Positions 6,323 through 29,458 are shown, numbered from the stretch's first letter. The stretch: DNA of 64,000 nt from Candidatus Omnitrophota bacterium (GCA_041662125.1 JBAZTA010000003.1:71992-135991); one strand, 5' to 3'. Notes: generated from the letters alone by a model not told the origin. Program-made: numbers and translations.

Positions 6323-6454
6323 GACTTCCTCCTTAATTGATTTCTACTTTCGTTTTATTTAATTGAAGTCTATAATCCCTGCTCAAAACCGTTTGCAAAG
6401 TGTATTGAAATAAAATAGCTTTGATCGTGGCTATAAACTGTTACCTGATATAAA

Positions 6455-6957
6455 AAAGGACAGGTAGATAAGCCGAGTTTTGTTATAACCACAGATATCT
6501 TCCAGAAGTAAAACCAGTGTAATTTGAGTTTTATTCCTGTGGTTATGGTGATTATTTCTCTCGATCATCCTGTTGCCAGGAAGACTCAAGCAGCTAACCC
6601 TTCTACCCATCTTGACCTATTACCGTACAAGATTTCAAACGGACCGTTTTTATCTATTCCAGCGCAATGCCGGAATAATGGATAGAACTATTTAACCTTG
6701 CTCCGCGCGGGGTTTTCCGTGCAAACCATATCGCTATGGCTTACGGTAGTCTCTTACACTGCCTTTTCACCTTTACCTCACCGCAATAAAGCGGCGAGGA
6801 AGTTTATTTTCTGTGGCACTTTCCCGACTGAGCACACGCTATATTTCTATAATGCGGCACAATGCTCTTGATTAAAGAGCGCGCTGTCCTCTGGAGCCCG
6901 GACTTTCCTCCCCGATATGCAGGATATCTGGGGCAATCACCTTCTACCTATCCTTAT
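6455..6957 (-). ncRNA. rnpB: RNase P RNA (bacterial type A), long variant ~500 nt
   Basis: The minus-strand RNA contains universally conserved motifs: GGAGGAAAGUCCGGGCUCCA (P4 5' strand, rc of 6889-6909); GGUAAAGGUGAAAAGGCAGUGUAAGAGACUACCG (P10-P12); GGAGCAAGGUUAAAUAG; GGGUAGAAGGGUUAGCUGCUUGAGUC; and 3' ACAAAACUCGGCUUAUC. A P1 helix GGAUAGGUAG/CUACCUGUCC closes the ends. Confidence 0.88.
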
Positions 6958-11562: not shown

Positions 11563-11707
11563 CACCTCGCCTTAATTTGAAAGGCGAGTGTACTGCTTTC
11601 TGCAGTAGAAAGCCGCACACCCGCGCAATTCCGCCGCAGCAAGCGGGGCGTACCCAGCCATACCAATTAGCTGGGTGCGATTAGCGCGTGGTGTTGCAGA
11701 CAACTCG
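11563..11707 (+). repeat. structured intergenic element, copy A (AGAAAG-loop hairpin plus bulged CACCC..GGGGUG hairpin, two sub-hairpins)
   Basis: Core GCAGTAGAAAGCCGCACACCCGCG...GCGGGGCG followed by TACCCAGCCATACCAATTAGCTGGGTGCG. The element is enclosed by the long-range pairing GGCGAGTG.../...CAACTCGCC. Related copies occur at 20148-20200 and, inverted, at 28707-28800. Confidence 0.5.
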
Positions 11708-13734: not shown

Positions 13735-14442
13735 TTACTTATCGCTGCTGCCGTATTTCTTGATATCAAGAAACCAGTGTTTCCAGAAACCGTCTTTTAA
13801 AATTGGTGATGATTCAATGATCTGGAGCCTTTTTTTAAAAATCGGTCCGTCGATAACAAGCGTATGGTATTCTCCGTTTTCTCCGCAGGGGCAGATGCCT
13901 TTTTTCTTTAGTTCCTCGATCAGGGGGAGGTTGATTTCTCTGCCGATGAATTCTTTGCCCATCAAGTCAGCTTTTGCGCTGACAATGATTGCTTTGAACC
14001 CCAATGCGATGAATTCTTTGATAATATTTTCCGTCGGGATCTCCCAGAGCGGCTCAACCGCCTGTATCCCTATCTCAGCGCAGACGCGTTCGACCCAGCT
14101 TTGGTGGTCTAAGAGGTAAATGTCACCGAACACCATTGATGTAATGCCCTGGGGTAAGAATTCGGTCACTGCTTTTTTAAACTCTGCTTCGTATTTTTGC
14201 ATGTCGGGGCTTACTTCTTTTTGAACTATAGGAACGCCGATTAATTCAGCCTGTAGTTTGAGCAGCCCTCCTTCAAGCCCGTGAAAACAGCCTCGTTTTG
14301 AGTCTTGAGAAATAAAGTTTAAAAGACAGGACACCTGGTATCCCGCCTTGAGCGCTTTATAGTACGCCAGGCAGCTGTCTTTTCCTCCGCTCCAGGAAGA
14401 TATTGCCGTTGTTTTTTTAGATGTTTTTGTCATAGTATCCAT
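13735..14442 (-). CDS. PP-loop ATP pyrophosphatase, Dph6/MJ0570 (DUF71) family
   Basis: 235 aa with the SWSGGKDS PP-loop and ExxE motifs. It is embedded between cobS and the btuB-like gene. Confidence 0.7.
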   Translation of the reverse strand: MDTMTKTSKKTTAISSWSGGKDSCLAYYKALKAGYQVSCLLNFISQDSKRGCFHGLEGGLLKLQAELIGVPIVQKEVSPDMQKYEAEFKKAVTEFLPQGITSMVFGDIYLLDHQSWVERVCAEIGIQAVEPLWEIPTENIIKEFIALGFKAIIVSAKADLMGKEFIGREINLPLIEELKKKGICPCGENGEYHTLVIDGPIFKKRLQIIESSPILKDGFWKHWFLDIKKYGSSDK

Positions 14443-18204: not shown

Positions 18205-19181
18205 TTTTCTTGTACCCGTTGGCTCTTTTTGAGCAGGATAATGAATACAGGAGCGCCAATGATCGCTGTGATAACACCGATCGGGATCTCCAAAGGCGGA
18301 TATATGGTCCGTGAAACGGTATCGCAGGTGACCATGAATGCCGCTGCTGCCAGGCACGTCGTGGGAATAAGTATTTTATGATTTGAACCTACCAGTAAAC
18401 GCATGATATGGGGAATGATCAATCCGACAAAACCGATAATACCGCATATGCAGACGATGCCGGCGGTAATAAGCGAAGTGACTACCAGTAAGATCTTCTT
18501 GACAGTTTCAACGTTAATGCCTACGTGCAGCGCTTCTTCTTCTCCCAGGCTTATGGCATTGAGGTCCTGAGAAAATATGTAAAGTATTGCGATGCCTGCG
18601 CAAACCAGGAATGCGACCATGGCAATAAGAGTAATGTCGTATACCTGCAGGCTTCCCCAGAGCCACCAGGTTATCCCGTGCAGCGCTTCATTTCCTGAAA
18701 TTGAGATCAAAAAGACGATGACCGCTGAGAGTGCTACTGACACGATAACTCCGGAAAGTATCAGTGATTGTTCCTGAACCTTGTTGTTCTGTTTGGCCAG
18801 GGTATAGACTAAAATACAGCTGGAAATTGCCCCCAAGAATGCCGCCAAGGGGAAATAGATACGTGATATGCCAATGATCAGCCCTATGACTGCTGCCAGG
18901 CCCGCACCGCTTGATGTCCCCAGAAGGTATGGTTCAGCCAGCGGGTTGCGTAAAATAGCCTGGAGGACTAATCCCGAGACAGCTAAACCACTGCCGGCTA
19001 CTATCGCGATCAATATCCGGTAGAGCCGTAGCGTAAGGATCGGATGGTTTTCTTTCTTGAGTAATTCTCCAATTGATAAATTAGCCGCGCCTTTGATGAC
19101 GCCTATGATGACTGCCGCAATTAATATTGCTCCCAGCCAGAATAATATTTTCTTAAGATTAATATTCATGTGCGGATACAT
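18201..19181 (-). CDS. ABC transporter permease, FecCD/BtuC family
   Basis: 326 aa with about 9 TM helices and the LGEEEALHVGIN region typical of FecCD permeases. Confidence 0.85.
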   Translation of the reverse strand: MYPHMNINLKKILFWLGAILIAAVIIGVIKGAANLSIGELLKKENHPILTLRLYRILIAIVAGSGLAVSGLVLQAILRNPLAEPYLLGTSSGAGLAAVIGLIIGISRIYFPLAAFLGAISSCILVYTLAKQNNKVQEQSLILSGVIVSVALSAVIVFLISISGNEALHGITWWLWGSLQVYDITLIAMVAFLVCAGIAILYIFSQDLNAISLGEEEALHVGINVETVKKILLVVTSLITAGIVCICGIIGFVGLIIPHIMRLLVGSNHKILIPTTCLAAAAFMVTCDTVSRTIYPPLEIPIGVITAIIGAPVFIILLKKSQRVQEK

Positions 19182-20004
19182 ACAATTTCTCGAACAATAG
19201 CTTCAGGCCTTTGGTGATCCGCGGCCCCGGCCGAAGCAGTATATCGGGCTGTATGTCATTATAAATCCGGTTATTTCTTACGGCATTGATCTGCTGCCAT
19301 CCAAAACGTTTTTTGACCAGTTCAATTGGTTTTTCTTCATTCATATAGGTCAGGAATATGCAATCGGGGTTTTGCTTGATAACTTCTTCCGGGCTAAAGA
19401 TACTATAGGGTCGAAGCGTGTTTTTTGCAATGTTGATCCCTCCTGCTAAAGTGATAAGTTCATCAATAAATGAACCTTTTCCTGCGGTCGTCAGCGGCTC
19501 AAACCAGATCTCAATGAATATTTTCAAACGTTTATCCGCGGGGATACGCTGCGCTTGTTGAGTAATTTTGGTGATCTCATCTTGCATTGCAACGATCACC
19601 TGCTGTGCCTGAGTATTTCTTTTTGTCAATTCACCTATTTGCTTTATAGATTCCAGCAGCTCTTGTATATTTTTTGGGTCAGCTACATAAACCGGCAGCC
19701 CGTAACGTTTTAAACTTTCAATCGCAGGCGTTTGTTCAAGCCCGGTGCAAAATATATAATCGGGTTTAAGCGCCAGGATCTTTTCAATATTGGGAGAACT
19801 AAAATCACCTATCTTTTCTTTGGCTTTAGCTTTAGGTGGATAATTGCAAAAAGAGCTGACCCCGATAATCTCATCATCAAGGCCTAAAGCAAAAAGGATT
19901 TCCGTGGTTGACGGGGCTAATGAAATGTAACGGGTTCCTTCAGCGGCAAACAAAGGCAGTGAGGTTACCAGTAATAAGCAGGCACTAAGAATGAATTTTT
20001 TCAT
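19159..20004 (-). CDS. periplasmic cobalamin/iron-complex binding protein (BtuF-like, class III SBP)
   Basis: The start was reassigned to MKKFILSACLLLVTSLPLFAAEG, a signal peptide. The track's upstream extension covers the leader hairpin. Confidence 0.75.
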   Translation of the reverse strand: MKKFILSACLLLVTSLPLFAAEGTRYISLAPSTTEILFALGLDDEIIGVSSFCNYPPKAKAKEKIGDFSSPNIEKILALKPDYIFCTGLEQTPAIESLKRYGLPVYVADPKNIQELLESIKQIGELTKRNTQAQQVIVAMQDEITKITQQAQRIPADKRLKIFIEIWFEPLTTAGKGSFIDELITLAGGINIAKNTLRPYSIFSPEEVIKQNPDCIFLTYMNEEKPIELVKKRFGWQQINAVRNNRIYNDIQPDILLRPGPRITKGLKLLFEKLYVSAHEY

Positions 20005-20023
20005 GTGAGTAGTAGGTATATTA

Positions 20024-20147
20024 CTCCACCTCGTAAGCATGCGTAAAATTCCCTCATTTCCCAAGAGGTGCGCAAAAATTTCTTTTAAAATTTTTGCGGT
20101 GTTACGTTGTGGGAAATGAGGGAATTTTATTCGCATACTCGGTGGAG
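20024..20147 (-). promoter_or_regulatory. large leader hairpin (~125 nt) immediately upstream of the btuF-like start codon
   Basis: Outer arms CTCCACC/GGTGGAG, perfect 17-bp inner stem AATTCCCTCATTTCCCA/TGGGAAATGAGGGAATT, and a nested palindrome GCAAAAATTT...AAATTTTTGC at the apex. Confidence 0.5.
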
Positions 20148-20200
20148 TTTGCGGCAGAAAGCCGCATACCCGCGTAGTACCGATTAACGCGGGGTGTCGC
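20148..20200 (+). repeat. structured intergenic element, copy B
   Basis: TTTGCGGCAGAAAGCCGCATACCCGCGTAGTACCGATTAACGCGGGGTGTCGC: an AGAAA-loop hairpin followed by a bulged ACCCGCG/CGCGGGGTG hairpin. Same architecture as copy A (11594-11680). Confidence 0.5.
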
Positions 20201-20527
20201 TATATTTTGTTTTATATATGTGCTCAAAAAACCAAAAACCCCAAGGACAGTTTATGTGAATTAAACTATGCTCGGGGTTACGCCCTGTTTTAAAACCTTA
20301 TCCTCGAGGTATAACAAAATATGCAGGTGAGGTGTTCTGACTCGGAGATCATCCTACTTTTCCACGCCTTCCCGGAGCTAAAGCTCCAGTGGCTTGATCT
20401 TTGGAATTTCGTACTTCCTTACAGCAGCGGGACTGTGCTTGAATTTAACAAGCTTCCCTTACCTTTTTTCATCCTAACCGAAATATATAGTTGTGTCAAG
20501 AAAATTTTTTTAAAAAAAACCTAATTC

Positions 20528-20758
20528 CTAAGGATTGTCTTTGTCAGGGGCCCTTTTTACGAGTATTACAGCTGCGTTATATTCTATGCGCTGTCCCGGG
20601 CGGATCTTTGCTGCTTTGCGCGTTTCAATGATGCCGTCGACTTTAACCAAGCCTGATTCGATGGCGTGTTTAGCCATGCCGCCGCTTTCAGAGAGGCCCA
20701 TAATTTTTAATATTTTGAAAAGTTCGAGGTATTCGCTGGTCAGATCAAAAGAGTCCAT
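20528..20758 (-). CDS. S4-domain RNA-binding protein (YbcJ-like)
   Basis: 76 aa with the S4 fold pattern (GLVKVDGIIETRKAAKIRPGQRIEYN). Confidence 0.65.
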   Translation of the reverse strand: MDSFDLTSEYLELFKILKIMGLSESGGMAKHAIESGLVKVDGIIETRKAAKIRPGQRIEYNAAVILVKRAPDKDNP

Positions 20759-28695: not shown

Positions 28696-28706
28696 ATTAG
28701 TCCTCC

Positions 28707-28800
28707 TGCCACAGAAAGTGGCATACCGGCCTATCCGATAAGGCCGGGTGTAAACAGCACCCCAGCTAATAGGTATGCTGGGTGCGCCCTTTCTGGGCAG
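28707..28800 (-). repeat. structured intergenic element, copy C (inverted relative to A and B), directly upstream of the secretin RBS
   Basis: Minus-strand RNA: a closing stem CUGCCCAGAAAG/CUUUCUGUGGCAG encloses hairpins CACCCAGC-AUACCUAUUA-GCUGGGGUG and CCGGCCU-UAUCGGAU-AGGCCGG. Hairpin 1 is near-identical to the second hairpin of copy A. Confidence 0.5.
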
Positions 28801-28816
28801 TAAGCGAAACATGCCG

Positions 28817-29458
28817 CTATAAGTATAGTTCAAATTTTTGCCCCTTATGATTGAGGATTATTTTGCCGTCAAGTATTTCTTCGACCATGAGTTCTCCGAT
28901 ACATTGGCCTTTGGAGACGTAATAGGTCTTTTCTGTTTTTTTATCTTCAATGATCGCCTGAGGATTATCACCGGCAATAACACCGACAAGATTTATGTCT
29001 TTCAGGAGATCGTGATTGACCGAAGCCATGCTTGTGCTTGTTTCCAAAGCAGCCTGGCTGTGAAACATTTGCTCGTTATTGATGCCTGTTTGATAATACT
29101 CAAGCGGTTTTATAGGGCTTGAACTTATTACTGGTTTCTGCACAATGCCTGGTTTCTCTTTTATGTCAGAGATGTTGATCGAAGGCGAGTTTATGAGAGG
29201 ATAGATCAGAGATCCTGTCAAGTATGCGAGTGAAGCGAAAAAACAGATCAAAACTATTTTTCCCGGGTTTAATCTTAAAGATATTATGTGTTGTGGCTTG
29301 ATTTTTGCATGGCCTGTTTTTGTTTGAACACTCGGCTCTGGAAGAGGGGGAACCCGTCCGGTTTGCAGCATTGATTGTTTTTCTGCCGGAAGGCGCTGTT
29401 TTTGCTCGTTTCGTATAAGCCGTAAAAGTTTTTCTTCAGGTGAAATATTGTCAGCCAT
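28817..29458 (-). CDS. GspC/GspB/PilP-like secretin-interacting inner-membrane protein
   Basis: 213 aa with one TM (IVLICFFASLAYLTGSLIY) and a C-terminal beta-domain (LVGVIAGDNPQAIIEDKKTEKTYYVSKGQCIG...ILDGKIILNHKGQKFEL) resembling the GspC HR / PilP fold. It lies between gspA and the secretin. Confidence 0.5.
   Translation of the reverse strand: MADNISPEEKLLRLIRNEQKQRLPAEKQSMLQTGRVPPLPEPSVQTKTGHAKIKPQHIISLRLNPGKIVLICFFASLAYLTGSLIYPLINSPSINISDIKEKPGIVQKPVISSSPIKPLEYYQTGINNEQMFHSQAALETSTSMASVNHDLLKDINLVGVIAGDNPQAIIEDKKTEKTYYVSKGQCIGELMVEEILDGKIILNHKGQKFELYL

Follow-up and report, generated by a model that had tools for sequence, protein, structure and literature searches.

A palindromic insertion behind a canonical cobalamin riboswitch in the leader of a Candidatus Omnitrophota B12 operon

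What is an unusually large hairpin doing immediately upstream of a cobalamin importer gene? In a 64-kb stretch of DNA from a Candidatus Omnitrophota metagenome-assembled genome (MAG; the whole stretch is hereafter the window, with positions counted from its first letter), the leader of a btuF-like gene, all features of which lie on the minus strand, carries a long palindrome just before the start codon. A first-pass annotation had read this leader as one that does not match the classical cobalamin riboswitch, although it heads an operon of B12 uptake and salvage genes, and had offered the hairpin as a variant or non-canonical regulatory RNA, a processing site, or a captured palindromic element. 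The main value of our analysis is corrective: a standard riboswitch, lying ~80 nt outside the interval flagged in that annotation, had been missed, and no new B12-sensing RNA is needed. We conclude, with a probability of roughly 0.9, that the hairpin is no sensor and represents instead a derived insertion, palindromic in form, that follows a canonical riboswitch. The fuller reading, in which this insertion has been kept as a duplex in the 5′ untranslated region (5′-UTR) with a structural role at the RNA level, is one to which we give about even odds.

A scan of the whole window against Rfam at gathering thresholds returned a full-length cobalamin aptamer (RF00174) on the strand of the gene, well above the gathering score of 31.5 bits (Table 1). 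It is the sole RF00174 match between 19900 and 20600, and it refutes the idea of a leader without the classical riboswitch by the very observation that had been named beforehand as telling against it, a full Rfam match elsewhere in the leader. A promoter-like site stands upstream of the aptamer, and orthologous leaders show the same promoter-like layout (TTGACA-17-TAGGCT/TATAAT). The expression platform is an intrinsic terminator, whose stem (20237–20279) is formed by 18-nt arms that are 83% complementary and folds with −22.6 kcal/mol (z = −3.35); by inspection, its CCCC...GGGG stem and U-tract are kept in all orthologues. The genes downstream of the leader encode Peripla_BP_2, FecCD and ABC ATPase proteins, a CobC-like phosphatase, CobU, CobT and CobS, and the operon content given earlier, btuFCD-cobC-cobU-cobT-cobS, is thus correct by domains. 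The leader as a whole therefore reads as a textbook member of its class, with a promoter, an aptamer above the gathering score on the strand of the gene, a terminator with its U-tract as expression platform, and then btuFCD and the cob salvage genes. With riboswitch and terminator in place, the control of the operon by B12 is already accounted for; the riboswitch would exert it through the terminator. What distinguishes this leader from other RF00174 leaders is the hairpin, which lies downstream of the terminator and outside the riboswitch, and a start codon that is displaced by 130–240 nt in the sub-clade described below.

The hairpin was described as ~125 nt long, and RNA folding bears this out (126 nt). 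The minus strand from 20232 to 20000 folds with −93.7 kcal/mol, compared to −45.5±4.0 kcal/mol in dinucleotide shuffles (z = −12.1). The main stem is perfect, as had been claimed, but longer than the 17 bp first given: it measures 20 bp (UAAAAUUCCCUCAUUUCCCA / UGGGAAAUGAGGGAAUUUUA), with arms at 20044–20063 and 20110–20129 that are separated by 46 nt. The outer CUCCACC/GGUGGAG arms (20023–20038 / 20133–20148, 81% complementary) and the nested AU-rich palindrome at the tip were both found as annotated; the outer stem CUCCACCGAG... / ...CGAGGUGGAG includes a CGAG/CGAG tandem G·A, and the palindrome (20071–20081 / 20088–20098), borne by the 46-nt apex, is perfect over 11 bp (11–12 bp overall). 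No other local inverted repeat in the window is as long, and no other perfect one reaches 20 nt; an arithmetic estimate puts the chance expectation for such repeats at ~1e-5. The hairpin folds identically within the full 486-nt leader, independently of the riboswitch, ~320 nt from the predicted transcript start. The flagged interval (20005–20230) also covers the end of the terminator U-tract, an AU-rich linker and two small hairpins. The large hairpin matches no Rfam family in the scan; it gives generic microRNA-precursor matches of at most 31 bits, below thresholds of 67–195, and these say “long hairpin” and no more. Homologous hairpins occupy the same position on four independently assembled metagenome contigs, which makes an assembly artefact unlikely.

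Those homologues came from 12 orthologous leaders, which were retrieved through a homology search with BtuF. The search found a protein 100% identical to the window's btuF product (found as P0001, 281 residues, and P0002, from a Candidatus Omnitrophota MAG contig of 395,841 bp), a small sub-clade at 76–79% identity, and many other Omnitrophota proteins at ~58–68%; a metagenome scan with BtuF added one locus only, L070. RF00174 is present in 12/12 of the orthologous leaders (52–98.6 bits). The sub-clade consists of the window, L068, L069 and L070/71, and BtuF identities make the window the outgroup inside it, as (window, (L070/71, (L068, L069))). A hairpin occupies this position in all four sampled sub-clade leaders (L068, L069, L070 and L071, in three distinct versions) and is absent from five outgroup lineages (L072/73, L074/75, L076, L077 and L078; BtuF 63–68% identical), so that the comparison with orthologues, put forward earlier as a check, supports the hairpin among the closest relatives and not in distant lineages. 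In these outgroups the ATG lies 7–28 nt past the terminator stem. From the end of the aptamer to the ATG there are 85–87 nt in L072 and L074, the outgroups measured, versus 216–324 nt in the window, L068, L069 and L070/71. Because the outgroup ATG abuts the terminator, the sub-clade spacer is a derived insertion of ~130–240 nt. One Omnitrophota sub-clade would thus have gained a palindromic insertion between terminator and btuF ATG, a natural experiment in which a riboswitch terminator has been split from the start codon that it normally abuts.

The hairpins of the window and its relatives were compared arm by arm against shuffles; MAFFT misaligned them owing to the 46-nt apex. The 5′ arm of the window resembles that of L068 better than 1,995 of 2,000 shuffles (5/2,000 were as good). 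The hairpin base, CCGAG/CGAGG, is common to the window and L068/69, and the window shares with its relatives both the lower main stem, AAAAUUC/GAAUUUU, and a G-less leader between hairpin and AUG. The upper stem and apex differ. The relatives have an 18–19-bp stem closed by a conserved 16-nt loop, ACCCGCU(C/U)C(C/U)CAUA(C/A)A, and the window apex looks like a perfect palindrome that has grown within the ancestral loop. When L068, L069 and L070 are aligned with one another, 34 pairs are 94% paired; four of the pairs have changed on both sides, none has changed on one side only, and one G·U is invariant. Pairing as good as this appeared in 4/500 column shuffles, and slid controls were 26–49% paired. 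The arms are ~60–83% identical versus 86–93% for the riboswitch, i.e., the arms diverge faster, with the loop changing at a similar rate. Even so, the window, L069 and L070 have perfect upper stems (20, 18 and 19 bp, respectively), and the spacer outside the hairpin is not alignable between lineages. Perfect stems despite such fast-diverging arms and unalignable surroundings indicate that the complementarity of the hairpin is actively kept while its surroundings turn over. In L068/69, ~85 extra nt separate the hairpin from the AUG, and the 3′ base of the hairpin recurs as an orphan duplicate (GTGCTTAAGCGCGGAAT) beside the G-less leader. Hence a rearrangement has happened there, and the hairpin was kept nonetheless.

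A promoter scan found no promoter-like site in the spacer between riboswitch and btuF. The hairpin would therefore be made only in read-through (low-B12) transcripts, as a ~50-bp duplex, where its most probable role would be that of a processing site for an RNase III-type enzyme and/or of a 5′ stabilizer or insulator before an unstructured ribosome landing region; in either capacity it would separate the riboswitch leader from the translated mRNA. RNase III substrates require roughly two helical turns, and 20 uninterrupted bp suffices. With a length of at least 20 bp, largely uninterrupted, as the yardstick, the window hairpin offers 20 perfect bp within its 51 pairs, and the relatives offer 18–19 bp that are perfect or near-perfect. 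The pairing has survived sequence turnover, apical replacement and flanking rearrangements, and template switching during replication may supply the perfect arms that are then subject to selection. Selected pairing would point to a step in processing or stability that takes effect once the riboswitch has been read through. The earlier suggestions of a processing site or a captured palindromic element are thus viable and lie near our own conclusion. A bolder version sees in the hairpin a post-riboswitch module, under selection and so far undescribed, with the conserved tandem G·A at its base, recruited when the start codon moved away from the terminator, and either processed by RNase III or bound by a protein such as the S4-domain protein encoded upstream. 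Such a module would uncouple the fate of the mRNA from the riboswitch leader and provide a clean bacterial case in which template switching renews the perfect arms of a hairpin that has a function, but we consider it rather unlikely.

Several observations weigh against a role maintained at the RNA level. The sample is one of four leaders in three distinct versions, which makes the covariation statistics weak. One-sided changes (G-C to G-U), which are usual under RNA-level selection, are absent; the hairpins are almost wholly Watson-Crick, with 0–3 G·U pairs, and sense and antisense strands are equally stable (−97.5/−96.6, −66.9/−66.5, −70.4/−68.5 and −67.6/−66.8 kcal/mol). This Watson-Crick purity and equality of strands give no sign that RNA rather than DNA is maintained. 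The distance from hairpin to AUG is 18 nt in the window, 14 nt in L070/71 and ~100 nt in L068/69; such a lack of conservation speaks against a role that depends on fixed spacing and argues against occlusion of the ribosome-binding site. The spacer also gathers other, non-homologous palindromes, and the site could merely tolerate or generate them. Finally, we infer both the co-transcription of the hairpin and its role in processing or stability, and for the function this is the whole of the case. The present data cannot separate RNA-level selection from DNA-level homogenization.

The same points are what a neutral DNA palindrome would produce. Template switching has been documented to create and maintain perfect stems, together with apparent compensatory changes, in one step (PMC8794818), and a palindrome that arises and stays perfect in this way, or by hairpin-templated correction, would need no RNA or protein function; the compensatory changes would be single mutational events and not the mark of selection. 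The near-pure Watson-Crick arms with their equal stability on both strands, the lack of one-sided changes, a loop that evolves at the rate of the stem, and the nested, perfect tip palindrome of the window hairpin all agree with this, as do two features of L070, where the terminator U-tract lies in a 28-nt, 89% palindrome and the 5′ base of the hairpin is the exact reverse complement of its 3′ base. Copying of one arm from the other would, on the other hand, erase the tandem G·A (window, L068/69), the invariant G·U and the 3′ bulges (A and CU; L068, L069 and L070), and the persistence of these asymmetric features across lineages argues against pure arm-to-arm copying. Moreover, the hairpin survives in each sampled sub-clade lineage while the remaining spacer is unalignable, and it is the sole such palindrome in 64 kb, so the genome shows no general tendency to make palindromes. 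We regard the neutral account as possible, at odds clearly below even; if the pairing is indeed not selected, the locus illustrates well, for bacteria, how template switching can maintain a perfect stem that has no function. The question of origin is partly separate. A degenerate, low-copy transposable element of the miniature inverted-repeat type (MITE), of the Correia or ERIC kind, which had entered the AT-rich DNA separating terminator from ATG in the ancestor of the sub-clade, would explain the arms as terminal inverted repeats and is compatible with an RNA role as well as with neutrality. The hairpin has the dimensions of such an element, for which a short non-coding core of ~100–400 bp with inverted repeats is expected (126 nt, long arms paired over ~45 bp), at a site that is empty in the five outgroup lineages; the orphan 3′-end duplicate in L068/69 suggests repeated insertion or rearrangement, and these genomes hold other small repeats, mobile or duplicative in kind: the window has its two-hairpin modules, and the relatives have insertions that lie between btuF and btuC and are flanked by repeats. 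It lacks the copies. The hairpin is single-copy in the window; its 17-mer arm gave 67 single-arm matches, in unrelated taxa, versus ~69 expected in 596 Gb of representative genomes, where no match to both arms was found; and a scan of viral contigs with the 20-mer arm gave 0 matches. By inspection, the flanks (CAAA and TAAT in the window, ATAA and TATA in L070) show no unambiguous direct duplication of a target site. A MITE origin is thus doubtful.

Two further explanations would give the hairpin a regulatory function of its own. As a palindromic DNA operator, it would be the site of a transcription factor or nucleoid protein governing an additional promoter, independent of the riboswitch and immediately upstream of btuF. 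Its symmetry suits this, and by inspection TAATAT or TATATA, between hairpin and ATG, could act as a −10 element for a near-leaderless transcript; yet the spacer contains no sigma-70-like site according to the promoter scan, arms of 20–45 bp placed 16–46 nt apart are unlike known operators, and the arm sequence differs between the window and its relatives where a protein site should be conserved. We hold this to be very improbable. We give still less credence to the initial proposal of a variant or non-canonical RNA that senses B12 or another ligand. The hairpin does head a B12 uptake and salvage operon and does keep its position among the closest relatives, but the leader already contains a canonical riboswitch; the hairpin amounts to a simple near-perfect duplex without a multi-helix junction or conserved unpaired core, it belongs to no Rfam family, its sequence and apex differ between close relatives, and it is absent from five lineages that have the same operon and riboswitch.

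Compared with described systems, the riboswitch is already known, and the hairpin is of a known kind, a co-transcribed intergenic palindromic element, without belonging to a described family. Like the E. coli ompA 5′ stem-loop and the RNase III sites of leaders, it places a strong stem-loop immediately before the region where ribosomes land. Known 5′-UTR stabilizers such as the ompA stem-loop are short and stand at the extreme 5′ end of the transcript; the large hairpin, by contrast, is internal. With Correia, ERIC, RUP and BOX elements it shares the form of a ~100–150-nt palindrome with long arms, an intergenic or 5′-UTR position, and the long mRNA hairpin that is expected to result. Correia hairpins are bound by RNase III and are cleaved or protected, altering the expression of the adjacent gene (PMC2649163; reviewed in PMC3184786). 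Correia elements occur in hundreds of near-identical copies with a TA target duplication and conserved termini, unlike the present hairpin, which is confined to one locus, single-copy in 64 kb and without a counterpart in representative genomes, and varies in sequence among close relatives. It resembles hairpins born of template switching (PMC8794818) in its perfect arms, two-sided changes, nested tip palindrome and lack of strand asymmetry; that work treats origin and maintenance, not function, and here asymmetric features persist that arm copying would erase. Repetitive extragenic palindromes (REPs) and the bacterial interspersed mosaic elements (BIMEs) that they form can affect mRNA stability (PMC3184786). 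The large hairpin is unlike these in being AT-rich, four times longer and not repeated.

Table 1. Positions of the leader elements, the btuF-like gene and the copies of the two-hairpin module in the window
Feature	Position	Strand	Details
Promoter-like site	20471..20499	−	TTGACA, 17-nt spacer, TAGGAT; upstream of riboswitch; 10/12 consensus matches
Canonical cobalamin riboswitch aptamer (RF00174)	20309..20497	−	86.6 bits, E 5.8e-20, model positions 1–189 of 189
Intrinsic terminator (expression platform)	20226..20279	−	stem AACCCCGAG...CCUUGGGGUU, then U5GGU6
AU-rich linker	20195..20225	−	after terminator U-tract
Two-hairpin module, copy B	20151..20194	−	P1 CCCGCG-UUAAUCGGUACUA-CGCGGG at 20169–20194; P2 GCGGC-UUUCU-GCCGC at 20151–20165
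Large hairpin, 126 nt	20023..20148	−	by RNA folding; 51 pairs, 3 of them G·U; −66.9 kcal/mol
G-less leader without Shine-Dalgarno sequence	20005..20022	−	UAAUAUACCUACUACUCAC, between hairpin and AUG; counterpart in relatives AAUAUAUACAUACUCAC
btuF-like gene, periplasmic cobalamin-binding protein	19159..20004	−	ATG at 20004; MKKFILSA... signal peptide
Two-hairpin module, copy A	11631..11697	−	between btuB-like TonB-dependent receptor gene and tonB; outer module with nested inner module
Two-hairpin module, copy C	28761..28799	+	upstream of and antisense to secretin gene (not B12-related)

Several other roles for the large hairpin or its parts were considered and set aside. It is not a terminator on either strand: it is not called by a terminator scan and has no U-tract, being followed by UAAUAUACC on the sense and GUUUGCGGC on the antisense strand. 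Sequestration of the Shine-Dalgarno (SD) sequence was rejected as well, with GGUGGAG lying 19 nt from the AUG, the relatives carrying GCGCGGAA at that place, and most genes of the window being SD-less (an SD core precedes only 25–42% of its long open reading frames, or ORFs). The R′/R″ core motifs of an integron attC site were not seen by inspection, and an integrase context is lacking. A longer ORF starting at 20136 traverses the hairpin and is spurious, the true btuF start being the ATG in Table 1; the spacer holds no credible small ORF. A match to one arm at 863–889 lies within coding sequence, extends over 12 exact bases only, and is attributed to chance. In the minimum free energy fold of the full leader, 20202–20214 in the linker pairs with the 3′ end of the aptamer (20310–20322; 13 nt, 92% complementary) and encloses the terminator. 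The 3′ arm of the hairpin is 70% complementary to the aptamer segment 20403–20422. Inspection of the relatives' leaders showed that the linker pairing is not conserved, and the relatives are without the other complementarity too; both are treated as chance or lineage-specific.

The repeat copy that had been noted beside the large hairpin is real. Copy B consists of two small hairpins, and 21/24 positions are identical to 11602–11625 (0 such matches expected). The pattern of this two-hairpin module is ACCCNGC-UAAUNGGUA..-GCNGGGU, after which comes a GC stem that closes a UUKCU loop. The window holds four modules of two subfamilies in both orientations, one of them nested in another: in copy A, a 46-nt inner module that is like copy C has been inserted in the loop of the outer module at TAATCG^G. 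Copy B aligns to the outer module of copy A with a score of 56 versus 6.7±3.2 in shuffles (0/3,000 as good), and the inner module of copy A likewise aligns to copy C (0/3,000). All three TAATNGGTA sites of the window fall in the hairpin context of a module, where 0.38 would be expected. Short, G+C-rich, imperfectly palindromic stem-loops repeated in intergenic positions and both orientations are what defines REP and BIME elements, and the module, with four examples in 64 kb, thus looks like a small dispersed REP-like repeat, perhaps a mobile one. It has no connection with B12 and is missing from the leaders of the relatives. Rfam scans by E-value with copies A and C gave no match, a scan of viral contigs with a descriptor of the small hairpins gave 0 matches, and a looser descriptor that allowed up to 2 mismatches in the loop gave 29 matches versus 33 in shuffles, i.e., noise. 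The module matches no catalogued family found here, and its presence shows that this uncultivated Omnitrophota lineage bears small duplicative hairpin repeats. We also considered the large hairpin as a part of the module, since its base resembles the last hairpin of copy A (CGAGGUG), and rejected this; the alignment of the outer module of copy A with copy B stops after the second small hairpin.

Other features of the relatives' loci were noted in passing. At L070 1850–1907 (= L071 346–403), the 3′ strand of the terminator together with its U-tract forms the 5′ arm of the 28-nt palindrome mentioned above, which has a 2-nt spacer, and L068/69 have an analogous U-tract/A-tract hairpin, UUUUUCCGC...GCGGAAAAA. 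Insertions of 590–730 nt lie between btuF and btuC at L069 3955–4673, L070 2843–3228 and L071 1339–1912, where the two genes overlap in the window; direct repeats of a GTCGCAGGTCGCAGGTCGCAA-type heptamer, ~350 nt from one another, mark their limits, and their core is GC-rich and looks structured. On the far side of the riboswitch, an S4_2 (PF13275) gene follows cobA/btuR in the window (20528–20758, minus strand), in L068, in L069 and on the contig of P0003; L070 carries an S4-like coding sequence at the same place, and the L071 contig ends too early to judge. The S4 gene is directly upstream of the leader in the window, and in the relatives crcB, DUF190 and a small membrane ORF lie in between. 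The outgroup loci are without the S4 gene, and L072/74 are without cobA as well. The S4 gene thus co-occurs with the hairpin, a co-occurrence that amounts to a single evolutionary event.

The gene cluster downstream of the leader also includes genes for a Diphthami_syn_2 protein, a TonB-dependent receptor and TonB. The Diphthami_syn_2 (PF01902) gene (13735–14442, minus strand) lies between cobS and the btuB-like receptor gene and is an unusual companion for B12 uptake and salvage genes. Near copy C, the listed ORF of the secretin gene begins at a TTG at 28833; its start is probably the ATG at 28698, which has AGGAGGAC upstream (28698–28720, minus strand). Elsewhere in the window, a class A RNase P RNA (6453–6954, minus strand; 224 bits) measures 502 nt compared to a model of 367 positions, with large insertions in several variable helices that amount to roughly 50 nt each at two sites.

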